Below, one piece after another: positions 4,664 through 62,929 of a stretch of DNA of 64,000 nucleotides (positions are counted from its first letter, which is position 1; each line of letters starts with the position of its first letter). Source of the stretch: Escherichia phage Murica; sequence record NC_041871.1; one strand, 5' to 3'. The notes below the pieces were generated by a model. It was not told the DNA's origin, did not search any database, and saw nothing but the letters and a program-made list of their open reading frames with translations. The translations under genes and the position numbers were made by a program.

Positions 4664-4919
4664 TCTTGCTAAACCTGTAGAAGCCCACCAGTTTGACGGA
4701 AGCTCTTCATCAGTATCTGATCTGCAACGGTGGATTGATACAGGTGTGTTTACATCGTCACCTGTTCGGACCAGAGATCTTCGTCGCATGTGTGAGCTTG
4801 TCGAGCCTTTTGGTAACCTTGTCTTGTACCAGGGAGATTGGCTAGTTGACTTTATGGGAGACTGGTTGGTAATGAGTAAAGAAGAGATGTTTAAAATTTT
4901 TAAGGAAGAGGCCGAGTAA
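4650..4919 (+). CDS. hypothetical protein
   Basis: 89-aa ORF; start overlaps the upstream gene end, stop overlaps the ligase start. Confidence 0.4.
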   Translation: MPLFNLAKPVEAHQFDGSSSSVSDLQRWIDTGVFTSSPVRTRDLRRMCELVEPFGNLVLYQGDWLVDFMGDWLVMSKEEMFKIFKEEAE

Positions 4920-6202
4920 TGCATCAAATCAAAACAACACTGTACGCACTGAACAAAGATGGCAGCTACCAACAGTGGAAAGTATTCACTGATGGCGAAA
5001 AGGTTATCGTAGAGTTTGGCAAGCTTGACGGTAAATTGCAGTACAAAGAGACGGTATGCACACCTAAGAACGTAGGTCGTGCCAATGAGACTACAGCTGA
5101 GCAACAGGCCGAGCTTGAGGCTATCAGCAAGTGGGAAAAACAAGTCCGTCTGGGGTATGTTGAAAACATGGAAGATTGCGAGCAGGGTGTTGACCTTTTA
5201 CCCATGCTGGTGCATGACTACCTGAAGCGTGGCAAGGCACTTAAATTACCTTGCTGGATCTTGCGTAAGTTAGATGGCCTTCGTCTGCTTGTTGTTTTCC
5301 AAAATGGTGAGCCTAAATTTATTTCCCGTGGTAATAAGTCCTACCCTATTCAAGGAAAGCTTTTAGAGCAACTTCGTTCTTTCCATTCTACCACTGGGAT
5401 TAAACAACTTGATGGGGAACTATACATTCATGGTCTTCCTTTGCAGAAAATAGTGTCTCTTGCTAAACGGTGGCGCACACAGGAAGAGATTCAGGCCGAG
5501 ATCGATAAAGACTATGAGGCAGATAAAAAACGCCGTCATGCCGCAATTAAGGCAGGCTTATCAACATACAAAAACTTCAACAAGGTAGATATTCCTGTCG
5601 ATGTTGAGCCTGTTCGTGATGATTTGCGTTACGGTGGGTACTGTAGCTACGATCTGGAGTATCACATTTTTGATATTCCTAGCGACAAGGTGTGGTGGGA
5701 TCCAGAAACAGAGTCTGGACGCTGCAAGGATCTTATGGATGCAGAGGATACCGTTACCACTCTGATGCTTGATCATATCAAGGTTGTTGACGCAGAGCTT
5801 GCGTACACAGTTGATCATTGCGAAGAATCTGTTGGTATATTCATGTCCGAAGGATATGAAGGTACTATCATGCGTAATTTCTGCGGTAAATACGAGTACG
5901 GTCAGCGAACATCTGAAGCATTGAAATGGAAAAAGTTCAACGACGCAGAGGTGAAAGTTATTGACGTTGAGAAAGATAAGAATGATGAAGGTGTTCTTAT
6001 CTGTGTTGACAAGGAAGGTGTTGTTGTTAAAATGAAGATGAAAGGCACGCACGAGGAGCGTAGCTATGACAGGATGCAGGAAATGATCGGCAAGTTTGTC
6101 ACCTTCAAATACCAAGCAAGGACAGAAGACAACAACTACCAATTCCCTGTCGGTATCTGCGTCCGAAATGTTAACCCAGACACTTGGGAGGTGCTTGAAT
6201 GA
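4919..6202 (+). CDS. DNA ligase
   Basis: Nucleotidyltransferase motif I KLDGLR with the adenylated Lys near residue 118; motif IV EGYEGTIMR and motif V LKWKK; cofactor not resolved. Confidence 0.8.
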   Translation: MHQIKTTLYALNKDGSYQQWKVFTDGEKVIVEFGKLDGKLQYKETVCTPKNVGRANETTAEQQAELEAISKWEKQVRLGYVENMEDCEQGVDLLPMLVHDYLKRGKALKLPCWILRKLDGLRLLVVFQNGEPKFISRGNKSYPIQGKLLEQLRSFHSTTGIKQLDGELYIHGLPLQKIVSLAKRWRTQEEIQAEIDKDYEADKKRRHAAIKAGLSTYKNFNKVDIPVDVEPVRDDLRYGGYCSYDLEYHIFDIPSDKVWWDPETESGRCKDLMDAEDTVTTLMLDHIKVVDAELAYTVDHCEESVGIFMSEGYEGTIMRNFCGKYEYGQRTSEALKWKKFNDAEVKVIDVEKDKNDEGVLICVDKEGVVVKMKMKGTHEERSYDRMQEMIGKFVTFKYQARTEDNNYQFPVGICVRNVNPDTWEVLE

Positions 6203-6325
6203 TGTAGGAAGGTTCAGTAGGTAACGGTAGCCAATTGAATGATGGTTTTCAATCGGCACATACATAACCACACTGTGTAGTGTTGTTGATCGTGTTAGTT
6301 ATGAGTAAACTGGAGAGTATGAAAA

Positions 6326-6796
6326 ATGAAACTTGATAAAAATGTTCAACGAAAAGCTTTCTTGGATATGATCGCATATTCGGAAGGCACAGATAATGGT
6401 AGGCAACCCACTAAGGATCGTGGATACGATGTCATAGTTGGTGGCAAGCTGTTTAGCGATTACAGCAAGCATCCAGGTGTGTACGTTAAGCTAAATGCTA
6501 AACTTACCTCCTCCGCTGCTGGTCGTTACCAGGTTTTGGAGAAGTTTGCTAAACACTACATGGAACAGTTAGGATTGCCAGATTTTGGCCCTGCCAGTCA
6601 GGACAAGATTGCGTTGCAACTGATCCGTGAGTGCAAGGCTCTCGCCGACATTGACGAAGGGCGTATCCACGAGGCTATCCATAAATGCCGTTCCCGCTGG
6701 GCTTCGTTACCTGGTGCTGGATATGGTCAGCATGAACAGAAGATCGAGAAGTTGATCGAGGTGTTTAAAAAGGCAGGCGGTGTTGTCCTTGATTGA
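6326..6796 (+). CDS. endolysin, lambda R-type lytic transglycosylase
   Basis: Near full-length similarity to lambda R as recalled (QRKAFLDM.AySEGTDNGRQ, GYDVIVGG.LF.DYS.HP, GAGRYQ, WASLPGAGYGQ). Confidence 0.9.
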   Translation: MKLDKNVQRKAFLDMIAYSEGTDNGRQPTKDRGYDVIVGGKLFSDYSKHPGVYVKLNAKLTSSAAGRYQVLEKFAKHYMEQLGLPDFGPASQDKIALQLIRECKALADIDEGRIHEAIHKCRSRWASLPGAGYGQHEQKIEKLIEVFKKAGGVVLD

Positions 6797-6799
6797 TCA

Positions 6800-6828
6800 T
6801 TGACATAACCACACGGACGTGGTATTGT
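6800..6828 (+). promoter_or_regulatory. sigma70-type promoter TTGACA-17-TATTGT
   Basis: Consensus -35 with 17-nt spacer upstream of ORF 6860; spacer contains short dyad CCAC-N6-GTGG. Confidence 0.5.
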
Positions 6829-6859
6829 TACCTCATAAAATGTTTAGGAGGGCTTAACC

Positions 6860-7066
6860 ATGAAAGATTTTCTGTTGGCAATTTTGTTCATGGCAGCATG
6901 TCTGGCCTGTGGTGTCGTGTTTGCAGGTGAAACAGCGTATCTTGTCGATGTATATCGGGACAATGGTAAACGTATTTGCCTTTATGAGACAAGTCAAGGT
7001 GAGCTCTACGAGCTTGTGAAACAAGGCGAGGCTGGATCTTGTCCTCGCACCCATTTCTTTGAATGA
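6860..7066 (+). CDS. small secreted protein, possible lipoprotein
   Basis: 68 aa; hydrophobic N-terminus LLAILFMAACLAC with lipobox-like MAAC; directly downstream of the endolysin. Confidence 0.4.
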   Translation: MKDFLLAILFMAACLACGVVFAGETAYLVDVYRDNGKRICLYETSQGELYELVKQGEAGSCPRTHFFE

Positions 7067-7075
7067 GGAGAATAC

Positions 7076-7540
7076 GTGGAAGACGGACGTTTAATGAAGT
7101 CTGAACGCAGGCTTATTGTGCAACTGATCCCAGAAACAGCTTGGTATAATAACCTCCGAAACGCTGTGAAGAAGAGTGAGTGGGATAAGATCCGTAAGAA
7201 GTGCTACAGAGAAGCCAACTACACTTGCGAGGTGTGCGGAGGTAAAGGCAGCAAACATCCAGTTGAGTGTCATGAACTTTACACTTTCGAAGAAGGAGTG
7301 ATCCGGCTTGTCGGACTGATAGCGTTGTGCCCAGATTGTCACACATCGGTGCATCCTGGGTTAGCAAATATCCGTGGAAAGTATGCTCAGGCAGTTAATC
7401 AGTTGGCTAAGGTGAATAAGATCACCAAGGGTATGGCAGAGGCGTATTACCGAGACTGCTTTGCAGAGTGGCGTGAGCTTAGTAAAGTTCCAGAATGGAA
7501 GACTGACTTTTCGTGGATAGAGGGTTACCTTGATGGCTAA
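7076..7540 (+). CDS. zinc-binding protein, possibly HNH-like
   Basis: CEVCGG...HPVECH...LCPDCH cysteine/histidine cluster. Confidence 0.35.
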   Translation: MEDGRLMKSERRLIVQLIPETAWYNNLRNAVKKSEWDKIRKKCYREANYTCEVCGGKGSKHPVECHELYTFEEGVIRLVGLIALCPDCHTSVHPGLANIRGKYAQAVNQLAKVNKITKGMAEAYYRDCFAEWRELSKVPEWKTDFSWIEGYLDG

Positions 7541-27851: not shown

Positions 27852-28381
27852 CAGGTATGCTTCTGATTAACTGGGAAGACCTCTATGGGGACAAAGACCC
27901 TGTTGCGTTTGTTGATCGTAGGTGGAGATACACTGAAGAACAACTGGCGGCAAAAAATTTAACTGCAAAACGCAGAAAGATCATCCAGTGCAAGTACAAA
28001 TACGCACAGTTTGCTGCAAAAGTGTCTCCACAAATCGAGAGCTTTGTGCTTAAATTGTATGACGAGTACCTCAAATTCAAATTGGATTTTGTGCAGGTGT
28101 ACCGTGCACAGGTACGACCAGATACCAACATATGTAGATGGAAGGTTGTTTGTGAAGGTAAAGATTTGCCGCTCAGCTTGACAATTGAGTGGCGTTATGG
28201 GTATCATGAGTGTGGTCTGTATGATATTTGGGATGTCATTGTAGATCCTGCTAAGCATCTGAACACAGAGGAGCTGGAATATATCAATAAGGTTATTCTC
28301 GATATGTTTTTCAGCTACACACATGAAAACTCTGAGAAAGAACGGGATAATTTTCTTGACACCCTCAGCGACCATTTGTAG
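27848..28381 (+). CDS. hypothetical protein
   Basis: 177-aa ORF. Confidence 0.4.
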   Translation: MTGMLLINWEDLYGDKDPVAFVDRRWRYTEEQLAAKNLTAKRRKIIQCKYKYAQFAAKVSPQIESFVLKLYDEYLKFKLDFVQVYRAQVRPDTNICRWKVVCEGKDLPLSLTIEWRYGYHECGLYDIWDVIVDPAKHLNTEELEYINKVILDMFFSYTHENSEKERDNFLDTLSDHL

Positions 28382-28411: not shown

Positions 28412-28639
28412 ATGAGTATAAATGTTGTGCTAATAGGTTACCTGGTAATGTCCGTTATAACAGCGGTATTCTTGACAGGTGTATGCATCGTGTCCAGACG
28501 AAGGGTGAAGTTTGATGATTTTATCACCATCATCACTGCTGCACCTTTTTGGCCTGTTGTTATCTTCATCGTAATAATGTGCCTAGTTGATTACTACAAG
28601 AATATCAGGAAGGAGAGTAGGGATGGAGACCGCACCTAA
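28412..28639 (+). CDS. small membrane protein with two predicted TM helices
   Basis: Hydrophobic stretches VVLIGYLVMSVITAVFLTGVCIV and IITAAPFWPVVIFIVIMCLV, basic loop and C-terminus; holin-like topology but not next to the endolysin. Confidence 0.45.
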   Translation: MSINVVLIGYLVMSVITAVFLTGVCIVSRRRVKFDDFITIITAAPFWPVVIFIVIMCLVDYYKNIRKESRDGDRT

Positions 28640-28858
28640 AACTATCTATACTGTTCTTAAAGAGATTGCGTTCTACGCAGATCTTAGCCAGGCACCTTTA
28701 TGGGAAAAGAGCATGTATTTAAAATGGTGCGTTAATTTAGGGAGACCTTCCAGTGTTTCAAGCCATGTTTATTGAGATGCTATCTGGGATATTGTTACTA
28801 GTAGCCATCTTAGGTGGTGCAGTTCTGATGTATAACTATCTTGAAAAAGGAGACAGCA

Positions 28859-29044
28859 ATGGTAAAAAATAAATCTTTAGAGCAGGCTGAAAACCTTCTC
28901 CACGAGCTGGTAAAGGAGTGGAAAGTTGAATACTCAGATTTTAATGCACGAGAGGGTGAAGATTATTGGCCTACGGAGCGCTCAGAGGGCGAATGGTATC
29001 AAGATTTTATAGAGTGGTTATATCAGACGTGCGATGAGGGGTGA
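28859..29044 (+). CDS. hypothetical protein
   Basis: ATG 28859 after GGAGA; ORF-track start 28841 is TTG. Confidence 0.35.
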   Translation: MVKNKSLEQAENLLHELVKEWKVEYSDFNAREGEDYWPTERSEGEWYQDFIEWLYQTCDEG

Positions 29045-29511
29045 CGATGTTTGTTAAATATGTAAAAACGTGCCTCAACAGTCTTGGCAGAGAGCATTGG
29101 TACACCTTGCTTGAAAAAGGGGAAATTTTAACAAAATCTGGAAAGATAACTTTGATACCTCTTGATAGTAAAGGTAAAGACCCGTCACGACTTGTTATAG
29201 ATGATTACGTTACAGGTGTGACGTTCGAGGTCTCTGTGGAGAGGTTAATACGCAGAGCTGGCGGCCCTTATGACCGAAGAGAGTATGTTTTCGATTCCGT
29301 TACAGAGATGGGGGAGCATCCGTCTTTAATGTTCAGGATGGTAATCAGAGATATGAGGTCATCTATAGATAGGATCGTAAAGGACATTAAGGAACCTTTT
29401 AGAGTAAAAGTTAAGAAGTTTTTCGATTCTAAGATTAACATACTCGCCGTTGCACTAGGTGTAGTTCAACTTCTGTTAATTTTGCACTATTTTGAACTAC
29501 TATTTAAGTAG
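29041..29511 (+). CDS. hypothetical protein with C-terminal hydrophobic helix
   Basis: 156 aa; C-terminal ILAVALGVVQLLLILHYF. Confidence 0.4.
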   Translation: MTMFVKYVKTCLNSLGREHWYTLLEKGEILTKSGKITLIPLDSKGKDPSRLVIDDYVTGVTFEVSVERLIRRAGGPYDRREYVFDSVTEMGEHPSLMFRMVIRDMRSSIDRIVKDIKEPFRVKVKKFFDSKINILAVALGVVQLLLILHYFELLFK

Positions 29512-29521
29512 TAGTTGAGAT

Positions 29522-29542
29522 ATGGCACAAAGGATGTGCCAT
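29522..29542 (+). promoter_or_regulatory. palindromic operator-like site
   Basis: Perfect dyad ATGGCACA-AAGGA-TGTGCCAT; same architecture as the dyad at 22531-22546. Confidence 0.45.
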
Positions 29543-29573
29543 AGTGAAATAAACTAAGAAAGAGGTAGAGAGA

Positions 29574-29921
29574 ATGCCAAAGATTAAAACGTTATTACTG
29601 TGGGTAGCTGTTTTAGCTTTTATAGGGTACTGGACTTGGGAAACTGAATTAAAAGATATCGGATATACCAGTCTTGAGAGCAAGGCGTGCATTGGCATAA
29701 CCGATGCGTTCAGGCAAAATGCTATGGATCACGAATGTGTTGATGCAGATATAGATGAGAAACTGTCTAAGGACAAAGATTTTTACCATGGGCATGCTTT
29801 ACTTGATAGTGGTGACACTGTAGAGTTCTGGTCGTGGTTTCGTGAAGATGGAACAATAAAAACAGCAGTAAAGATCTCTAACAAAGAGTTAATGCTGTTG
29901 CAGCAAAAGGAGGCTCAATGA
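29574..29921 (+). CDS. hypothetical protein with N-terminal signal-anchor
   Basis: 115 aa; hydrophobic segment LLLWVAVLAFIGYW. Confidence 0.4.
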   Translation: MPKIKTLLLWVAVLAFIGYWTWETELKDIGYTSLESKACIGITDAFRQNAMDHECVDADIDEKLSKDKDFYHGHALLDSGDTVEFWSWFREDGTIKTAVKISNKELMLLQQKEAQ

Positions 29922-35658: not shown

Positions 35659-35922
35659 ATGAACATCCTGATGTGGGTTGTAGCAGTGGCGTTTGTTGCA
35701 TGTTTTTGCTGCTGGGTTGCGGTGAGGATTTCTGTAGCTACCCTTCGGAAGTTGGGGTTCTCAGAGTGGGATATTAATATCCTTTCTTTTCGCAATGAAA
35801 CAATCTCAGCCGCCCTGCTCTGTAAGAAATTCAAGTGGGAACCTTGCGAGGTCATGAACTATCTAAGAACGGGAGATATCCCTGAAAGATTTAAAAAAGT
35901 TCTTGACGACAAGGATAAATGA
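35659..35922 (+). CDS. small membrane protein
   Basis: 87 aa; N-terminal TM segment ILMWVVAVAFVACFCCWVAV. Confidence 0.4.
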   Translation: MNILMWVVAVAFVACFCCWVAVRISVATLRKLGFSEWDINILSFRNETISAALLCKKFKWEPCEVMNYLRTGDIPERFKKVLDDKDK

Positions 35923-37045: not shown

Positions 37046-37353
37046 GGTGGATTATGTCTACAAAGGCGGCTAAATACTCCTACATGCCATCAACCTCTGC
37101 AGAGGTAGACTTTAGTTTCGATGTGTTTCCACTGTTTGAGGTGGTTCTGGCATACCCAACAATACTATCTACTCCTGAATCACTTGTACCTGTTAAGTTG
37201 CAGAACGCTATGCATTCTATGCACTACAACAATAAATGTAGGCACAGATGGTGTCAGGACGAGGAAAAAGATTTGGATAGTTTGAGGGATTTTGACAGTC
37301 ACCTTTTGACACCTTTCAGCTACTCCAACCTTGATAAGCCCTCATGGGTATAG
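37042..37353 (+). CDS. hypothetical protein
   Basis: 103-aa ORF with overlapping start. Confidence 0.4.
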   Translation: MRWIMSTKAAKYSYMPSTSAEVDFSFDVFPLFEVVLAYPTILSTPESLVPVKLQNAMHSMHYNNKCRHRWCQDEEKDLDSLRDFDSHLLTPFSYSNLDKPSWV

Positions 37354-37377
37354 CAAAATATCAAATTTAAGACACCT

Positions 37378-37405
37378 AGGACGCTCTGTGGCGTCCTTTT
37401 CTTTA
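37378..37405 (+). terminator. intrinsic terminator
   Basis: AGGACGC-tctgtg-GCGTCCT followed by TTTCTTTATCT. Confidence 0.75.
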
Positions 37406-37566
37406 TCTGGTGCACGATTGCATACCTTGGACAGATAATCTCGTTACAGAGCGTTTAAGAGCTTTCTACAAACAAGTCTCTCTTTCGAGCGTAGCGAGAA
37501 CGCACGTCCGTTTTGACCAAAATCACCATACGCTCGGATTTTAACCAAACCCTCGCGGCGTTGCTG

Positions 37567-37595
37567 TTGACACATTACCGCTCCCGTGATAGTAT
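37567..37595 (+). promoter_or_regulatory. sigma70-type promoter TTGACA-17-TAGTAT
   Basis: Consensus -35 with 17-nt spacer upstream of the small ORF at 37616. Confidence 0.55.
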
Positions 37596-37615
37596 CCACA
37601 CACAGTTTGGAGAAT

Positions 37616-37717
37616 ATGGAATACACAATGAGAACATTGTCTGAAGTTTTAGTGGTGATCCTGATGATCATTACTTCCATAGCGGCTGTTGCCGGAATAC
37701 TCACGGGTGGAACATGA
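37616..37717 (+). CDS. small hydrophobic peptide (about 30 aa)
   Basis: Single TM-like segment LVVILMIITSIAAVAGIL; stop overlaps ATG of ORF 37714; start ambiguous (37616 or 37628). Confidence 0.3.
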   Translation: MEYTMRTLSEVLVVILMIITSIAAVAGILTGGT

Positions 37718-38262: not shown

Positions 38263-39739
38263 CACACAATTAGCTGCCCGGCTAAAGTGCTGGAGCACCT
38301 ACAATACATCTTTCAACTAAATTTCCCACCACCACAATCACTTACCTTCCACACATGACTGTTTGCTTGTTTAGTGAGCAGTCATGCCTTGACATTCTTG
38401 CCTATCCTGATAAAATTAAGTTCTTCTCTTTTCTTTTACCGAGTAATTCGGGTTTTCTGTTCTCTTCGGTTTGAAGGGGTATGGAGATACACCTGAGTGA
38501 ACATGGTGAACAACCGAACATTTGGCTATGGCATTAGCATGGCGAAGCGGACGGGTGACGAAAGAGGGGCCGGAGGACACCAGTCACTGCCATATGATAT
38601 ATGGGTGATAACCTGAAGAGTCTGAATAAGTGTTTAAGTACCAGTCAGAGGAAAAGGTGAATGGTAGCCGAAGGGGGAGGGGGGTTTCTTGTATCTTTAA
38701 TTTGTATATTATGTATACACTCGTAAACCAATCTCATCTGAATCTGTTTACCACACAAAGTAGATAGGGACAAATATCACCTATTAAACTTGAATTATTT
38801 ATAGAAAATACCACAACACCACTTAAGTCTTTGATTTTACACACAAATCCTACAGATATTCAACCTCTATATTTAACATATTCATAACATATTCCATACT
38901 CTACCTGTCTGATCAATTTACCCAACCACATCCTCCATATTTTCCCTGTCTGTACCACCCCTGCCCCGCCGGGAGTCCCGTCATATCTGGCTTTCCAGCA
39001 AATATCACACCCACAAATATCATTGCCTGAAGAGGGTTTCATCCCATAGTACATGCCTTACCTGAAGAGCGCTTCATACACCACGTAAATTTTTTAATTT
39101 ACCCCCCCTCCCCGCCGCCGGAGTGGTCGGCTTTTCCCACACAGGCCTGAAGAGTCAGCCAGAAATATCTGAACAGGTCCAGTTATACCACGATTTTGAC
39201 CTGACCGACAGGAGTGCTGCCAGGCGGACGGAATGGGAATACTTCTCATTCTTATAATAATTCTCAAATATCGAGGCAGTGAGGCAAATTAATAGGTGAG
39301 GCCGTTCACACAGTGGCACAACATTTGCAATCTATTTTGTGAGGGTGAATGAGAATACCTATCATTGTGAGAACTGTTATCATTACGGGCAATTTAACAT
39401 AATACCCATTATGCGCACCACTGGCGATCCATACAGGGATTGATAACATGAGTTACAGTTTACGCATATAACAATCATATTTCTTACTATTTGTGTGGGA
39501 TATAGTTAGCAGCCGATAGATTAGATATTGACCTGTGGACTTCCAACCGTCTAGACGTCTAAACGCCCACACAACAAGGATTATACATACATTACTGAAT
39601 GTAAACAGGGCCGCAAAAATGCTACCATACCAGATTGTAAATTTTTCATGCAGCACTTGACAAAGAGGAGAAAAACTTGTCTGACACAATATGACATACT
39701 GGGCACATTAAACACACTTTAGACTTAATTGACATGCCT

Positions 39740-39862
39740 GACTGTTTACGCTGTCACTATTCACGCTATTACTATTCACTCCCTTTACTGTTCACGCTCT
39801 TACTGTTTACATGCTTAATGGTTTACATGACCAATAGTTTACATAGCTAACTATTTACATGG
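39740..39862. repeat. array of eight tandem 15-17-bp iterons
   Basis: Head-to-tail units ending TT(T/C)AC(G/A/T) with 15-16-bp period (e.g. ctgtcactattcacg, ctattactattcact, ctcttactgtttacatg, ccaatagtttacatag). Confidence 0.75.
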
Positions 39863-39871
39863 AAATGATAA

Positions 39872-40153
39872 GCCATGCCATTCGTTTGCATGATAACTAT
39901 TAGCAAGTTAATAATCTTTCGCTGGCTATGCCAGGTGACCTTTGGTCACCCCTTCGGGTGTTTCTATGACATAATATAAAAGCAGGGCAACTATTAGAAG
40001 ATCTATAGTTGCCTTGCTTGTTATGTCATGATTAACTAAATACAAGGCAACTATGATCTGATTAATAGTTTGCAAACAAACTATCACGGGGGGTGATGGT
40101 TACTGCTTTTATATTATGTCGCGACTCCGTCGCGCCATGCCATTCGTTTGCAT
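39872..40153. repeat. 262-bp dyad-rich element bounded by exact 20-bp direct repeats
   Basis: GCCATGCCATTCGTTTGCAT at 39872-39891 and 40134-40153; internal inverted repeats GGTGACC-ttt-GGTCACC, GGCAACTAT..ATAGTTGCC, GACATAATATAAAAGCA / TGCTTTTATATTATGTC. Confidence 0.75.
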
Positions 40154-40765
40154 AGTTGCCTTATTGTTACAGATAAAATAATTGTATTGTTAATTATTTC
40201 TTATCTTTCTCTTAGTCATCTAATGATTCCAGTCAGTATAGTAATGTACAGTAAACATTAGACGACTAAAGATTTATATGCTTATAATAACTTACAGTGA
40301 CAATTTCGGACTGTTTACGAAAAATGTTGACACCTGAGCCGATTTATGTTATGCAGTTTACACGAATAATTATTTTATGCAGGTATTGACTATTCCGTTA
40401 TTCTATGGTCGGAATAAATACTTAGCAGTCTATAGAATGGTGACGCTACGTGAATTCTGGAATTTAGTGGCTATAGTTATACCCGATTTTTCACGTAGAA
40501 CACGCTTTTGTGGTTATGTAAGTGTATGACTTATAAAGATTTTTAGTTGTTGACAAGACACTGAAGATATGCATCAGGTTAAATTTTGTGCAATAGCTGC
40601 ATTACGTGCAATTTTGGAAGGAAAAACGTGTAAAAATGGCCCTGCTACCACACAATGAAAGATTATGCAATAGCTATTTTATATGTATGTTTGTACAGTG
40701 TGTGGGATTGATGGCTAGTCAATTATTCCACTTGCCAGGTGGGGACGTTTGTGGTAGGAGAAATA

Positions 40766-40798
40766 CAGACAAAAAGAAAGGGGCCTTTTAAAGCCCCT
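40766..40798 (-). terminator. intrinsic terminator for minus-strand gene 40817-41236
   Basis: Minus strand: AGGGGC-N8-GCCCCT followed by TTCTTTTTGTC. Confidence 0.7.
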
Positions 40799-40816
40799 GA
40801 TAGTTTAGTTAAGAAA

Positions 40817-45550: not shown

Positions 45551-45587
45551 TCCTTGTTAACTGCGTGGTATTTTAACAGGGTTTAAA

Positions 45588-45632
45588 TTTACTTTATTGA
45601 TGGCCCTGGAGTCAAGGCCATCTAAAAATAAA
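45588..45632 (-). promoter_or_regulatory. conserved 45-bp promoter/hairpin element, copy 1
   Basis: Minus strand TTATTTTTA-GATGGCC-ttgactccag-GGCCATC-AATAAAGTAAAT; TTGACT in the loop, 18-nt spacer, TAAATT. Confidence 0.55.
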
Positions 45633-45634
45633 TT

Positions 45635-45835
45635 TTACAGGCCTACAATCTCTTTGATTCGTTTAACCGCTGCCTCAGCGCCTTGGGGGTAAAAATTATG
45701 GTAACCAATCACGCGAGTGATACTAATCGCCGTTTGATGATCTTCATAGTCGCCCTTGAAGATTTCTTGACCGTCAATCAGCACGGCAATTTTTTCTTCT
45801 TTTTTGAAGTTAATAACGCGGATATTGTTGCTCAT
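45635..45835 (-). CDS. hypothetical protein
   Basis: 66-aa ORF with AGGAG RBS. Confidence 0.45.
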   Translation of the reverse strand: MSNNIRVINFKKEEKIAVLIDGQEIFKGDYEDHQTAISITRVIGYHNFYPQGAEAAVKRIKEIVGL

Positions 45836-46121: not shown

Positions 46122-46343
46122 TTAGCAGTTACGTGGTTTGCAATGGCCCCCAGGAGTATTATCACCACGCACATTGCAAGAAAAATTATCTCTGTCGTTG
46201 TTCGATCCATTGTTATAAAATTCCTCAAGATCAGGCCTGAAAATAAAGCGTTCGTTATTGAATCCGTCACGCCAGGCGGCTGGCTTCAAATCTTCACTAA
46301 AGGGATTAATTAACGTGGCATTATTTAAACGGTTGGCCCACAT
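46122..46343 (-). CDS. hypothetical protein
   Basis: 74 aa from internal ATG; competes with an overlapping out-of-frame TM ORF (46085-46210). Confidence 0.3.
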   Translation of the reverse strand: MWANRLNNATLINPFSEDLKPAAWRDGFNNERFIFRPDLEEFYNNGSNNDRDNFSCNVRGDNTPGGHCKPRNC

Positions 46344-46692
46344 ATTTTCTATTCCTCTCAAATAGGCGATCCGCCTCAGTTAAACATATCTCATGGGCTT
46401 GATCTCTGGTTTTAGCCTCATCAAAAACCTGTTGTGCCAGGCTGCAGCGTAGGGAGACTGGAAGATCACTATAATAGGCGTTGACAAACGTTTGAGCGTC
46501 GTACAGGTCTGAAAATACTTTACCCTTTCTATTATTCCCCTTGTCAACAATTGCAAGGATAACCAATACAATAGTTGCGACTACCCCCAGGAAAATAGAT
46601 ATAATAAACCATAAAAAGGCGGATCTTCCCATCTTGCCAGCGATCCAGGCGTTAAACAAGGCAACCAATACAGCCAAAATAATAAATTCCAT
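46321..46692 (-). CDS. membrane protein with two predicted TM helices
   Basis: Start moved to ATG 46692 after AAAAGAGG; FIILAVLVALFNAWIAG and AFLWFIISIFLGVVATIVLVILAIV. Confidence 0.5.
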   Translation of the reverse strand: MEFIILAVLVALFNAWIAGKMGRSAFLWFIISIFLGVVATIVLVILAIVDKGNNRKGKVFSDLYDAQTFVNAYYSDLPVSLRCSLAQQVFDEAKTRDQAHEICLTEADRLFERNRKYVGQPFK

Positions 46693-48403: not shown

Positions 48404-48601
48404 TTATTTGTCTTTATGGCGGTATCGTTCTGCCTGTCGTTCACGTTCCAAAAGCAGGCCCGGTAATTTGCGATCATAGTGATTCCTCCAGATCTTCCCG
48501 AACCTTTTCGGCTTATTCAGTTTATTGTTACGCTGGCGGCGTTCCGGCAGCTCTTCGGAATCGTGGGGGCGCTTTACAATTTTTTCGAAATTAATTTTCA
48601 T
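48404..48601 (-). CDS. hypothetical basic protein
   Basis: 65-aa Arg/Lys-rich ORF. Confidence 0.4.
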   Translation of the reverse strand: MKINFEKIVKRPHDSEELPERRQRNNKLNKPKRFGKIWRNHYDRKLPGLLLERERQAERYRHKDK

Positions 48602-48945
48602 AAATTTCCCCCTTTACTGATTTCAATATTTGCCTGAATCGCCCGGATACGCCGTTTTATAACCTCCTGATCCTTGCAATCATATCCCCAAAAGTCTACG
48701 ATCTTTGCGCCTCCGGCCTTTAGGCGGTATAGTGTTTCTTGCATCTTGTAAGCTGGGATCGGTCGCGGTGTTACCTGGTCGCCTCTCTCATCTTTGTACT
48801 TGATTATGTAGTCTTCGTTGTCGTTGAATACCCAAAATGGGTATTCTGTGAGCGCGTTGCTATCTTTTTCGTTTTTAGATTGGATCTTGTTTACAATTAA
48901 AGCCGTAGCAATAGCGCCAATAATAAAACTAGCCCCGCTGATCAT
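48598..48945 (-). CDS. hypothetical protein with N-terminal TM segment
   Basis: ISGASFIIGAIATALIV N-terminus. Confidence 0.45.
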   Translation of the reverse strand: MISGASFIIGAIATALIVNKIQSKNEKDSNALTEYPFWVFNDNEDYIIKYKDERGDQVTPRPIPAYKMQETLYRLKAGGAKIVDFWGYDCKDQEVIKRRIRAIQANIEISKGGNL

Positions 48946-49019
48946 GTACTTTCTCCTTTCATGGTGTTAATAAATTATCTTTATAGATGGCCCTGCAGCC
49001 AGGACCACCGAAAAAATAA

Positions 49020-49265
49020 CTATTTCACAATGCCTACAAAACAGATCCCGCCTTCACCTATATAAGCAATATCGGTCACTTTGTAGTTGGTCAAGATCTG
49101 TTTATTCAGATCATTAATAAAATCGGTCATTGCGTTGGTGTAGTTGTCTTCCGTATCTAAGGCATAATCCCAGGTGTAAACCTTTTTACGTCCGAAGCCT
49201 TTTACCATGATACGGGCGCTTTTGGTGTTGGTAGGGGCATAATATTTGGTGATTAGTGCTGCCAT
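49020..49265 (-). CDS. hypothetical protein
   Basis: 81-aa ORF with TAGGAG RBS, downstream of element copy 2. Confidence 0.45.
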   Translation of the reverse strand: MAALITKYYAPTNTKSARIMVKGFGRKKVYTWDYALDTEDNYTNAMTDFINDLNKQILTNYKVTDIAYIGEGGICFVGIVK

Positions 49266-49306: not shown

Positions 49307-49352
49307 AGTTTACTTTATTGATGGCCCTGGAGTCAAGGCCATCTAAAAATAA
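49307..49352 (-). promoter_or_regulatory. conserved 45-bp promoter/hairpin element, copy 2
   Basis: Identical core to copies 1 and 3; TTGACT-18-TAAACT on the minus strand. Confidence 0.55.
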
Positions 49353-49354
49353 TC

Positions 49355-49696
49355 TTACTCGTTTTCTTCCAGCTCCGCAAGCTCTTCTTTTGCTTCTTCC
49401 AACTCTGTCTGCAATTCCTGGTATTCTTCATCGTCCTCAATATCCAGGCTGTCGATGTAGTCGCTAAATCCGCAGCGGTAAGCGATAGGATCTAGCTCCT
49501 TGAGGATACGCGACGGAAGAAAAGAAATGTTTCCGATCATAATTTCGCCGTAGATCTCGTCCAACCATTCATCATAGTTTTCGTCGTACTTGTCCTCGTC
49601 GATTTCAAAGTTATCGATCTTGTCCTCAAGGTCTGCGATCTGTTTTTTCAGTGCGGCAACCTGAATAGCTTTTTCTGCGGCGGTCATAGTAGTCAT
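49355..49696 (-). CDS. acidic coiled-coil protein
   Basis: 113 aa, very acidic; AAAAGGAGAAAAA RBS. Confidence 0.45.
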   Translation of the reverse strand: MTTMTAAEKAIQVAALKKQIADLEDKIDNFEIDEDKYDENYDEWLDEIYGEIMIGNISFLPSRILKELDPIAYRCGFSDYIDSLDIEDDEEYQELQTELEEAKEELAELEENE

Positions 49697-49927: not shown

Positions 49928-49973
49928 AGTTTACTTTATTGATGGCCCTGGAGTCAAGGCCATCTAAAAATAA
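49928..49973 (-). promoter_or_regulatory. conserved 45-bp promoter/hairpin element, copy 3
   Basis: Same core as copies 1 and 2; immediately after the stop of gene 49976-50371. Confidence 0.55.
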
Positions 49974-49975
49974 AC

Positions 49976-50371
49976 TTAGTAAGTTTTCAGTACTTTCCCG
50001 TCCAGTCTGTCAAGCTGGATCTCGATAGCTGCAGAAAACCTATTATAAACCACATCGCCCATGGAGTCCAGCCAATCTATGACGTTATACACCTGCTCTT
50101 TATTCTTGCAAGTCCGGATCCGTTTCATTACGTAAGACGGATCAATATTAGTGCTCTCGTTGTTGTGGTCATGCGCCTGGCCTGCTGCATTAGTTATAGA
50201 TTTTACAACCACCTGAAAGGGCTTTAAGGTGCCTTTTGCGTTCATCTCACGCGCTTTTGCGGCGCGGTTGTTATATGTTACACAACGGCGGCAAATGTTG
50301 ACCAAATGCATATCAATAATTTTTTCATCGTTTGCCAGTTCGTTCATGATGCGGCGTACGTTCTTATTCAT
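49976..50371 (-). CDS. hypothetical protein
   Basis: 131-aa ORF with promoter and leader hairpin upstream. Confidence 0.45.
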   Translation of the reverse strand: MNKNVRRIMNELANDEKIIDMHLVNICRRCVTYNNRAAKAREMNAKGTLKPFQVVVKSITNAAGQAHDHNNESTNIDPSYVMKRIRTCKNKEQVYNVIDWLDSMGDVVYNRFSAAIEIQLDRLDGKVLKTY

Positions 50372-51613: not shown

Positions 51614-52215
51614 AATTCTAAATGAGAACTCCTCGCATTTAATAAATTTAATTAGCACGCTAATTACACTCCGTAACAATTTACTATAAAATAGTATCCA
51701 CTAAAATATTCCCATATAGAAATTTTAAAAATCCATTTCTGAAAACGAAAAATCGATTTCGTCCCTAAAAATTTCAGGCCTAGATCCGGAACGATTTCCA
51801 GAAAATCCGATTCAGAAAACGAAAAACAGATCGAGTACTGAGAAATTTATCGAGAAAAATTTTCAGAAAATCCAAGCCCTGAAATGAAAAGTAGATCGAG
51901 TACCTGGAAAGCTGCACCGCAACTTCAAGATAGTGGTTAGATTGTTACCATAGAAGGTCAAGGGTAAGTGGAGGAAGTTCTAGTAGAGGGAGGTTAGCAT
52001 GTGTGGGAAATCTATAATGGTGGCCTGGAATATGGTGCAAACGATAGGATGAGTTATTCAGCTTGTCGCGCCTACTCTGAAAAATCCATTTTAGTTTTCG
52101 ATCCATTTTCTGATTTTCTAAGAATTTTAAAATATCCGGCCCGGTGAAATATCAAAAGGAGGAAATCCATTTTAGAAATCCTCCTTATACTTGATATGCC
52201 AGGAATTTTCAAGTA

Positions 52216-52545
52216 TCAGCTGTCTTTGTTTTTAGGTTTGTACATGCGCAGAGGTATGGTCTTTGTAACATTCCATTTCCTCAACCCTTCCCAGCTCCAG
52301 TTGTGGGCGTGATACCCGGTTATGCATGCACTGCTGGCGTGATCATAAGCATAAGAGAACGCTATGTGCACCAGGTGGGGCCAGTCCTTCCACGGCTGTG
52401 GACCGTAAGCCTTTCTCCAACACCGACACAAACTAATTGTCTCAAGAATAGGGAGAATAACAATTCCATATACCACCACCAGAATGGTCAGTGCAATGAT
52501 TGTCAGGAAGACATACCCTGCAGTTGAAATGATGATCTCTGTCAT
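52216..52545 (-). CDS. membrane protein
   Basis: N-terminal hydrophobic segments IIISTAGYVFLTIIALTILVVVYGIVILPIL. Confidence 0.45.
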   Translation of the reverse strand: MTEIIISTAGYVFLTIIALTILVVVYGIVILPILETISLCRCWRKAYGPQPWKDWPHLVHIAFSYAYDHASSACITGYHAHNWSWEGLRKWNVTKTIPLRMYKPKNKDS

Positions 52546-60192: not shown

Positions 60193-62929
60193 CTGTGATC
60201 TGGAATGGAACGCCCATCATTTTAGAAGCTTGCCAGAAGCAATGCACCACCATTTCACCCACAGGGCTCCAGATAAGTTCAAGCTTTCCGTCATCGTTCA
60301 GGATAGGATCGTACACCGTGTTTCCGTCTCTGTCAACCACTTCGTTTCCGTTTTCATCCTTGCGTGCCTTTTTGTACTTATGACCGTCAAACACATGAAG
60401 TTTGGCCTCCTGCTCTGCCTTAAATGCTTCCAATTCTTCAATTGTGTCGAAGGTGTACACAGTCTTATACTTAGGCGTGTCAGGGACCTGAAGTTGGTAC
60501 TCATCATGGTAATAAATAATACGACGAACACCTTCATCGTACCACCCACGCTTCACCATTTGGTGGTGCATGAGTATCCCAACTAAGTCACACAACGATG
60601 CACCACCATTTTGTTGGTATGCATTAAGTAAAGAGTGTTTAGATCGGGTCCAGATAGCATGACCATCAAAAGAGTAGATAAACTTCTTACCCGTTGCTTC
60701 CCAGAATTTCTCCAGATCCTCTTTACGCCCTTTAAGACCAGGGTTGGCATCCCAAAGCGCATCGATTACCCTTTGCCCCAACTCTGGGGAGATATCCAGC
60801 ATGTCTGCAACTTTATCTTTTTGTGCCCCATACATAACCCCGTACGTGATAGGTTTACCGTCGTTACGAGACACCTCTCTACCTGCTACTTTCGTATATG
60901 CCTCAGCATTGTTTTGGTGGGCATCCCCGTTACTTACAACATCGTAATACAGGCCGTTGTCGAACTCAAAGGCACCCCAAGCCCCGATAAGCTGCTCTAA
61001 GTTGGACCCGTCAATACCGATCTCAAAGTATCCTGGAGGAACACCCCACAGACTGCGCATCTCTTTACCCATAACCACTTTAGGAGATGGTTTAGGCATG
61101 TTTGCACAAATACTGTGTTTCTGTCGGGAAGTGTTTGTTAATCCAGAACTTTTAGCAGGAAGCTTATGGTCAATCTTCAAACGTGGGTGATTAAGAAGAC
61201 CAGTATCAACCTTATCCTCCTTGATTGGATCAAGGACCGATCTGCGGTTTCGCAATGATAACCACAAGACAATATCTTTAGCCATCTCTCCGTTCAATTT
61301 TTCAAGATTTGGGCATAGGTGTCCAAACGTATCTTTCAGCTGCGGAGAAGTAATAAGTGCTCTGGCTTTTCTACGTATTTTCCCGAATACTTCCTTTTTA
61401 ATCCTTTCGGAGTTAGGAAAGCTTCGGAACTTGTGCACGGTTGTCTGAAACTTAGCATCAGTTTTGTTCCAGAAGTTGATAATCAGGTCACAATACTCTG
61501 ACTCTAAAAGCTCGTCCATGTATGCATATACTCGTGCATCAACATCTGCATCAGGTAGAGCTTTCTTCTTGCTGTCTTTAGTTACATCCTTAGTTCTCCA
61601 CATTGTCGGAAGCCAACCAGCACTGATCAGGTATCGCTTAATGTCGTCCTGATTGCTGATTTTCATAGGTATCTTGCAGTCCGGCATTCGCTTCTGCTGT
61701 AGATCACTTATTGCCTGATCCATCAGCTCTTTAGGTAAAGGTTGTGGTGTGGAAGTGCCCTTAATATAGCCTCTCAAGAAATCAGCCATCTTATCAGGGT
61801 CTTTGCAGCCCATCTCTTCACACCATTTTATCCCCATCTTGCTGACATCTCCTGTGGAGGTAAATGCTCGCTTAGGCGGGGCTTTGAACTCCAAAGCACT
61901 CATGTCCACAGGATAGCCAAGCTTATCTTTTAACCATTTCCAACCATTGTTGGAGATTGTCCCATCTTGGTTAAACGGCTTTTCAGGGAACTTGGGCCGC
62001 TGAGACATTGACAGCTCTTTTAAAGGAAGTTGAGGTTCAACACGATCAGCGATTTCTTTCATCCACGCATCGCAACGGTCACGTAAAGCAATAGCTCCAT
62101 CTATGTCGAAGTATACACCCTGACGGGCCTGCAGCTCCATCAGGAAGTGCTGCAGCATGCCTCGGCGTAATGCGTTCTTCCAGGTGATTTTCTTGAACCC
62201 TTTCGGCTTCTCTTTGGCTGGATCGTACATAAAGTTCTGCATGTCAGATTTGCCGTAGAATACACCTTTTGATTCCGCTACCAGCTCTTTCCAGAGCAGC
62301 TCCTGGATGATAACGTCCTCGAATACACGATCCACATACTTCCACAACGGAAGATCGCGCCAGTCATCAATTTGAACTTTCTGGTTACCAAGGGCGTAGC
62401 CCCATGCCATAAGGCCGTGAGGACCAACAGGCTGCATTTTCTTAGTAACCGGGTTGAATACAGAGTCCGGACAACCTTTTGGTAAAGGGCGATCAGGCCA
62501 CAAGATTCTGCTCATCGCCAACGTATCAAACAGGTTAACCTGGTGGTCGTTGATAGTCCCCATGCATTTAGGATCACGGAACATATCAAAATGAATACCG
62601 GATAATCTTTCCATCAGCATAAAGTCATAACTGTAGCAGTTATGGCAGTTCAAAGCTGTTGGTGACCAGTCGGAATTGCCTGTAAGCCAACCTTCCAACT
62701 CCGAAAAATCTGCTATGCGAACTTCAAAATCTTTATGAAGAGTTTTCTTTGCCAGAATAAAGTTCTTAGCCTTCTCTATATCCTCTTCGGAGTAGTGTGT
62801 GCGGTCATTTAGAGGAAGGAACAGCATAAAACGGTTCTTATTCAGCTCTTTAAACAGGCCGCAGTGATAATAAAGATCTGGATCTTCCAGCAAACCGGAT
62901 GACTCAAAGTCGAACGACCACATGCTCAT
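60152..62929 (-). CDS. DNA polymerase, family A, with 3'-5' proofreading exonuclease
   Basis: 925 aa; exo motif SFDFESSG near N-terminus; motif B RNDGKPITYGVMYGA; motif C YYHDEYQ. Confidence 0.9.
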   Translation of the reverse strand: MSMWSFDFESSGLLEDPDLYYHCGLFKELNKNRFMLFLPLNDRTHYSEEDIEKAKNFILAKKTLHKDFEVRIADFSELEGWLTGNSDWSPTALNCHNCYSYDFMLMERLSGIHFDMFRDPKCMGTINDHQVNLFDTLAMSRILWPDRPLPKGCPDSVFNPVTKKMQPVGPHGLMAWGYALGNQKVQIDDWRDLPLWKYVDRVFEDVIIQELLWKELVAESKGVFYGKSDMQNFMYDPAKEKPKGFKKITWKNALRRGMLQHFLMELQARQGVYFDIDGAIALRDRCDAWMKEIADRVEPQLPLKELSMSQRPKFPEKPFNQDGTISNNGWKWLKDKLGYPVDMSALEFKAPPKRAFTSTGDVSKMGIKWCEEMGCKDPDKMADFLRGYIKGTSTPQPLPKELMDQAISDLQQKRMPDCKIPMKISNQDDIKRYLISAGWLPTMWRTKDVTKDSKKKALPDADVDARVYAYMDELLESEYCDLIINFWNKTDAKFQTTVHKFRSFPNSERIKKEVFGKIRRKARALITSPQLKDTFGHLCPNLEKLNGEMAKDIVLWLSLRNRRSVLDPIKEDKVDTGLLNHPRLKIDHKLPAKSSGLTNTSRQKHSICANMPKPSPKVVMGKEMRSLWGVPPGYFEIGIDGSNLEQLIGAWGAFEFDNGLYYDVVSNGDAHQNNAEAYTKVAGREVSRNDGKPITYGVMYGAQKDKVADMLDISPELGQRVIDALWDANPGLKGRKEDLEKFWEATGKKFIYSFDGHAIWTRSKHSLLNAYQQNGGASLCDLVGILMHHQMVKRGWYDEGVRRIIYYHDEYQLQVPDTPKYKTVYTFDTIEELEAFKAEQEAKLHVFDGHKYKKARKDENGNEVVDRDGNTVYDPILNDDGKLELIWSPVGEMVVHCFWQASKMMGVPFQITGEYLCGRNWGDCH

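Follow-up and report, generated by a model that had tools for sequence, protein, structure and literature searches.

The locus raises the question of how an endolysin whose gene stands among replication genes, with neither a holin gene nor a spanin gene beside it, would be released to the cell wall, and where in the genome the other lysis functions are encoded. The question was addressed within the window, by which is meant the whole 64,000-nucleotide stretch of DNA that was analysed, and in the records of related phages.

The 3.3 kb around the endolysin locus are 99.4-99.6 % identical in nucleotide comparison to Escherichia phages LL12 (99.4 %) and vB_EcoM-Pr121LW. The same segment is matched by 128 phage records, 111 of which cover at least 80 % of it with the order unchanged. 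By sequence, the window was taken from the genome of a Vequintavirus (an rV5-like myovirus), with window position 1 corresponding to approximately position 65262 of LL12. About 20 GenBank records under MG0656xx (“Campylobacter phage” C12, A142, D1 and others) are 97-100 % identical to Escherichia coli vequintaviruses in the regions searched, and their host labels (Campylobacter jejuni) look doubtful. The features of the locus are as follows.

4919-6202, plus strand: ATP-dependent DNA ligase gene
6203-6325, plus strand: 123-bp spacer from ligase to endolysin gene, with ribosome binding site GGAGAG
6326-6796, plus strand: lambda R-type endolysin (predicted lytic transglycosylase), 156 aa; equivalent to rV5 gp89 and LL12 gp90
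6800-6828, plus strand: predicted sigma-70-type promoter (TTGACA, 17 nt, TG-TATTGT); equivalent to P90 of rV5 record DQ832317
6860-7066, plus strand: predicted small secreted protein, 68 aa; equivalent to rV5 ORF90
7076-7540, plus strand: HNH endonuclease gene

The order of the endolysin gene, promoter and 68-aa gene is that of ORF89, P90 and ORF90 in rV5. The ligase was identified by Pfam domains PF01068 (DNA_ligase_A_M) and PF14743 (DNA_ligase_OB_2), and is annotated as DNA ligase in LL12, MaxTheCat and rV5. The product of 7076-7540, which the preliminary description had called a zinc-finger protein, proved to be an HNH endonuclease (PHROG 5200, E = 2e-72), and the annotation of related records continues beyond it with an exonuclease, EndoVII, a DnaQ-like exonuclease and a methyltransferase. 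Annotation labels it a “homing” HNH endonuclease. It holds its position throughout Vequintavirinae, including the distant Serratia phage ChuuTotoro and Salmonella phage SSBI34, and because the homologs in these two phages are syntenic and 47 % identical, the gene is regarded as part of the conserved core, not as a mobile homing endonuclease.

The protein encoded by 6326-6796 matches lambda lysozyme R over its full length (PDB 1AM7, E = 3.4e-56, residues 4-154 against 3-153), with similar scores for PDB 3D3D (E = 4.6e-56) and PHROG 90 “endolysin” (E = 3e-56), a similarity well outside what chance would give. The SEGTDNG motif with its catalytic Glu is kept, YSEGTDNG being aligned to WSEGTDNG of lambda R. 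The catalytic Glu of the SEGT motif is Glu19 in lambda R, and 94 of the 156 residues (about 60 %) are identical to the lambda R sequence. The gene thus encodes an endolysin of the lambda R type, with predicted lytic transglycosylase activity, and the designation given to it in the preliminary description, as well as its placement between the ligase gene upstream and the 68-aa and HNH genes downstream, is borne out. Related phage records annotate the equivalent gene as endolysin or lysozyme, and pfam00959 is cited for the lysin gp89 in the rV5 paper (PMC3606486). Pfam-A gave no match at E ≤ 0.01 for the endolysin, the 68-aa ORF or the HNH protein, and these three were therefore identified via PDB and PHROGs.

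The endolysin begins with MKLDKNVQRKAF and contains no hydrophobic segment, none of its 19-residue windows reaching a hydropathy of 1.6; it therefore has no signal peptide and no SAR domain. A soluble, cytoplasmic endolysin of this kind would be expected to depend on a holin for its release. No contiguous holin-endolysin-spanin cassette is present at the locus, the neighbours being the ligase, secreted 68-aa and HNH genes. The earlier statement that neither holin nor spanin genes flank the endolysin gene holds, in that the sole membrane-type neighbour by hydropathy is the 68-aa ORF and a six-frame scan for a canonical lipobox found none at 3-11 kb (elsewhere in the window there were three, all spurious and on the non-coding strand).

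Because it lies immediately 3' of the endolysin gene, the 68-aa ORF was weighed as a possible lipoprotein or spanin-type lysis protein. Its one hydrophobic segment is N-terminal, as it would be in such a protein, and Cys14 stands in a near-lipobox context, FMAAC; hydropathy shows no C-terminal transmembrane domain (TMD). Hydropathy and alignment give it a signal peptide about 22 residues long, followed by a beta-rich mature domain of some 45 residues; the PHROG of the protein (4641) has no assigned function. In an alignment of nine close homolog clusters, C40 and C61 are invariant, but Cys14 and Cys17 are missing from five (P0006-P0010; for example MKTLWAVFISAMMFASGSAWS/GD, the slash marking the cleavage site). 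They are likewise missing from the homologs of ChuuTotoro and SSBI34, which are 36-38 % identical and have the same two invariant cysteines. Ordinary signal-peptidase I sites are found in the homologs (KASA/S and EAHA/G in ChuuTotoro and SSBI34; AWS/G among other homologs), and the lipobox Cys expected of an o-spanin or other lipoprotein is not conserved. The gene also lacks an adjacent i-spanin or other TMD-protein gene, and the protein, having no C-terminal TMD, has the features of neither a two-component spanin nor a u-spanin.

The surroundings of the 68-aa ORF point in the same direction. A promoter of the sigma-70 type (consensus scan 10/12, with extended -10) separates it from the endolysin stop codon. 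In ChuuTotoro and SSBI34 the homologous gene lies between the ligase and HNH/exonuclease genes, and there is no R-type endolysin gene nearby. A genuine spanin pair, equivalent to LL12 gp66/gp65, is located elsewhere. The AlphaFold model of the 68-aa protein (pLDDT 82) consists of the signal helix followed by four beta strands, and the fold search with this model was uninformative, as the best E value against PDB was not below 0.06 and the matches were generic small beta-barrels. It is very unlikely, given these observations, that the ORF encodes a lipoprotein or spanin-type lysis protein, and the suggestion of a lipoprotein made in the preliminary description is not upheld, while the small Cys-containing secreted neighbour that was also described there is indeed present, with an N-terminal signal and two invariant cysteines. 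The ORF is best read as encoding a predicted small secreted protein with its own sigma-70 promoter, neither a lipoprotein nor a spanin. Its two invariant cysteines likely form a disulfide bond, and its transcription is probably early. It is transcribed separately, from the sigma-70 promoter, and does not belong to a lysis cassette.

An exact 12-mer, ACATAACCACAC, occurs twice in the window by motif search, at 6262-6273 and 6803-6814, with one copy in the intergenic region on either side of the endolysin gene; the first lies in the spacer 3' of the ligase gene, and the -35 region of P90 is overlapped by the second. The pair could be a shared promoter/operator element, the trace of a gene insertion, or due to chance. 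The promoter scan found no sigma-70 consensus match in the spacer 6203-6325. The rV5 late-promoter-like motif TGGTAAAATA has 17 matches in the window against 6.8 expected, none of them in the 123-bp spacer before the endolysin gene and none directly upstream of either of the two holin candidates listed below. The rV5 authors placed genes 82-163, including gp89 and gp129, in a single transcription unit (PMC3606486).

The spanin pair was located outside the window. The genes for the LL12 i-spanin gp66 and o-spanin gp65 occupy 60847-61529 of LL12, directly upstream of and overlapping the large terminase gene, which places them approximately 3.7 kb to the left of the window edge and 10 kb from the endolysin gene. 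The two genes overlap by 4 nt, both products match PHROG Rz-like spanin families, gp66 has an N-terminal TMD (residues 14-32) and gp65 has a lipobox (LLCGC), so that a TMD-bearing i-spanin and a lipobox-bearing o-spanin are encoded by adjacent genes, as in a two-component spanin. The genes beside them (LL12 gp67 and gp75-79) encode no TMD, and no endolysin gene adjoins them. The lysis functions are thus dispersed, as was supposed from the window, and the arrangement that would have spoken against this, a second endolysin gene outside the window with its own holin-spanin cassette, was looked for and not found, the spanin genes having neither an endolysin gene nor a membrane-protein gene as neighbour.

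Published work on related phages agrees with this layout. In rV5, gp89 was named as the lysin and gp129 as the putative holin, “separated ... as in phage T4” (PMC3606486). In LL12 the endolysin, i-spanin and o-spanin were found and a holin could not be identified (PMC6658697); no holin was found in the papers on Gotham and KPP-1 either. The spanin genes of rV5, PVP-SE1 and CB7 adjoin the large terminase gene, and these phages have no classic lysis cassette (PMC7344957), while a census of spanins assigned the rV5 families to the “separated” architecture (PMC6139136). The layout with a stand-alone endolysin gene is therefore already known, and the novelty that the preliminary description implied for it does not stand, since it has been in print for rV5 from 2013 on and was reported anew for LL12, CB7 and Gotham.

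A further possibility is that lysis is performed by another wall hydrolase, the R-type gene being an accessory copy acquired horizontally. Other Vequintavirinae genera use different endolysins (PMC7344957; PMC12210895), what lies between the ligase and 68-aa genes varies across genera, and the endolysin gene is bracketed by the two ACATAACCACAC copies, all of which would fit an acquired gene. However, virtually every complete genome of the genus has the R-type gene at this position, and the GC content of the gene (0.47) is near that of its neighbours. The only other hydrolase-like genes found were two, for a spike/tail lysozyme of the baseplate and for a “cell wall hydrolase” of the DUF6950 type; both belong to the tail module, and the DUF6950 protein lacks a signal peptide as well as a membrane-protein gene beside its own. 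A “putative glycosidase” of the BASEL annotation (27857-28381, plus strand), considered as a second endolysin, was rejected on account of having no family match and no lysozyme-like predicted fold. The SleB-like hydrolase that the CB7 paper reports as conserved across the subfamily (PMC7344957) was looked for as well; the one “cell wall hydrolase” annotated in the first 50 kb of MaxTheCat is the DUF6950 protein of the tail module, which does not form a lysis cassette. That the R-type gene is an accessory copy is thus highly improbable, and the 6326-6796 product is retained as the endolysin of the phage.

For the holin, two open reading frames that had been singled out as holin-like in the preliminary description were found to exist as described, each with two predicted hydrophobic helices, and they are the same two that published annotations put forward.

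28412-28639, plus strand: best holin candidate, 75 aa, two predicted TMDs, basic tail; homolog of rV5 gp129
46321-46692, minus strand: second, weaker holin candidate, 123 aa, two predicted TMDs; “putative holin” in BASEL annotation

The rV5 protein gp129 has 78 aa, two TMDs and a Lys/Arg-rich C-terminus (PMC3606486). The product of 28412-28639 is 88 % identical to that of rV5 ORF129, from which it differs in length by a 3-residue deletion in the tail (75 against 78 aa). By hydropathy its TMDs lie at about residues 3-21 and 40-58, and are followed by the C-terminal tail YYKNIRKESRDGDRT, so that it has the small size, two TMDs and charged tail of a class II-like holin. The loop between the helices is also positively charged (SRRRVK), and because of this basic loop an N-in/C-in topology is ambiguous from sequence. 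A homolog with 32 % identity (P0024) shares this architecture, with a tail (VKRKMKKRDEKS) that is strongly basic, and its gene lies in the same PhoH-ClpP...173-aa synteny. Among 1.84 billion proteins the family counts three representatives, each on a vequintavirus-like contig with the synteny kept, and guilt by association therefore offers no evidence on its function. No holin family of Pfam, NCBIfam or PHROGs matched the protein, its sole match being PHROG 10061, which has no assigned function; when ten membrane-protein ORFs were scanned against the Pfam, NCBIfam and PHROG holin families, they gave noise or function-less PHROGs only.

At least eight BASEL records annotate the equivalent of 46321-46692 as a putative holin, its conservation across 117 records is 95-100 %, and two TMDs are predicted in it; on these grounds it might be the holin that releases the endolysin. 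The conserved core, however, is a soluble C-terminal domain of about 70 aa, and variants P0020 and P0021 keep this domain with one TMD, which would be unexpected if the hairpin were the functional core. No holin family of Pfam, NCBIfam or PHROGs matches the protein, and its gene belongs to a block of numerous small genes on the opposite strand, where it comes straight after a terminator-like hairpin. It is considered an improbable holin. Both candidates are restricted to the genus, and for this reason context in unrelated phages gives no support to either. The gp129 homolog looks more holin-like and is ranked first; it is put forward tentatively, its chance of being the holin falling somewhat short of even. 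What probability remains after the two candidates goes to some other membrane protein, including those of the cluster at 28.4-29.9 kb and a 104-aa protein encoded outside the window. Further small membrane-protein ORFs of the window are found at 35659-35922, 48598-48945 and 52216-52545.

The cluster (28412-29921, plus strand) has four membrane-protein genes within 1.5 kb, of which the gp129 homolog is the first and the remaining three are given here.

28753-28872, plus strand: 39-aa ORF, one TMD
29041-29511, plus strand: 156 aa, C-terminal TMD; PHROG 7821 “virion structural protein”
29574-29921, plus strand: 115 aa, N-terminal TMD

The 104-aa protein is encoded at 37349-37663 of MaxTheCat (MZ501094) and has an N-terminal TMD followed by a long coiled coil. 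Its gene lies between those for a tail-fibre chaperone and a short tail fibre; it belongs to PHROG 5345, which has no assigned function, and gave only weak coiled-coil noise against Pfam. In the first 50 kb of MaxTheCat, a stretch that takes in the late structural block, the annotated proteins with a predicted TMD are the spanins, the tape-measure protein and this one, which is possibly an unlisted lysis or assembly factor.

Several other elements were observed in the right-hand part of the window. At about 38310-40816, some 2.5 kb contain no ORF of more than 78 aa and lie at a switch of coding strand and GC skew; the gap matches a “non-coding” box on the rV5 map and a CDS-free gap in MaxTheCat, and could represent an origin, or else a place where terminators converge. 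No Rfam family was matched in the window, this region included. In the minus-strand small-gene block a 51-nt element occurs four times (45586-45636, 48973-49023, 49307-49357 and 49928-49978), each copy comprising a GC-rich hairpin (GATGGCCCTGGAGTCAAGGCCATC) between A/T-rich runs; these are probably repeated terminator/promoter cassettes. Three degenerate 62-nt direct repeats with a spacing of 65-74 nt lie at 51710-51910.

The observations can be accommodated by a scheme in which the endolysin would be made in the cytoplasm from the replication/nucleotide-metabolism transcription unit and would be harmless there. An unlinked holin would then permeabilise the inner membrane and let the endolysin reach the cell wall, after which the separate Rz/Rz1-type spanin pair, encoded beside the large terminase gene, would disrupt the outer membrane. 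With the timing of lysis set by the holin, the endolysin gene is free to lie at any genomic position. The reading as a whole, namely a Vequintavirus with a soluble R-type endolysin, an unlinked holin, separate spanins and dispersed lysis genes, is held with high confidence; within it, the analysis shows the identity of the endolysin, its lack of an export signal, the gene order, the place of the spanin genes and the lack of lipobox conservation in the 68-aa protein, whereas the dependence on a holin, the timing of expression and the choice of holin gene are inferred. A more unusual combination, in which the endolysin would be released through a holin of no described family (the gp129 type being the candidate) or by a non-canonical route and the 68-aa protein would at the same time be a new periplasmic effector (acting, for example, in superinfection exclusion or envelope modulation), is considered unlikely.

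Phages of the rV5 type are widely used in therapy and biocontrol cocktails, and they have lysis genes dispersed in the style of T4. In practical terms, the analysis ranks the two published holin candidates, strikes the 68-aa ORF off the lysis suspects, and cautions that the gene beside that of the gp129 homolog is annotated as a “putative glycosidase” without support. The significance beyond annotation is small, though the real holin, once identified, would help in engineering the timing of lysis in rV5-like phages.

Among known systems, the class II holins, such as S21 of phage 21, resemble the product of 28412-28639 in its 75-aa length, two predicted TMDs and highly charged, basic C-terminus; they differ in that this protein has no family match, its gene is not adjacent to the endolysin gene, and no dual-start motif was seen. 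Lambda R lies in the S-R-Rz/Rz1 cassette under the late promoter. The endolysin described here shares with it full-length homology (at about 60 % identity), the SEGTDNG motif, solubility and the lack of a signal, whereas its gene stands alone among replication genes, with the spanin genes about 10 kb away and the holin unlinked. The lysis genes of T4 are dispersed and comprise e, t and the spanin pair pseT.3/pseT.2. T4 is likewise a large virulent myovirus in which the soluble endolysin is encoded apart from the holin, with a spanin pair of the separated type elsewhere; T4 lysozyme, in contrast, belongs to another family than this endolysin, and a search of the membrane proteins encoded in the window detected no homolog of the T4 holin T. 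The comparison with T4 was made by the rV5 authors (PMC3606486) and, for the spanin architecture, in the CB7 paper (PMC7344957). The closest systems are those of rV5 (gp89 and gp129) and LL12 (gp90 with spanins gp66/gp65), whose genes are orthologs in the same positions, with no difference of substance from the arrangement described here.
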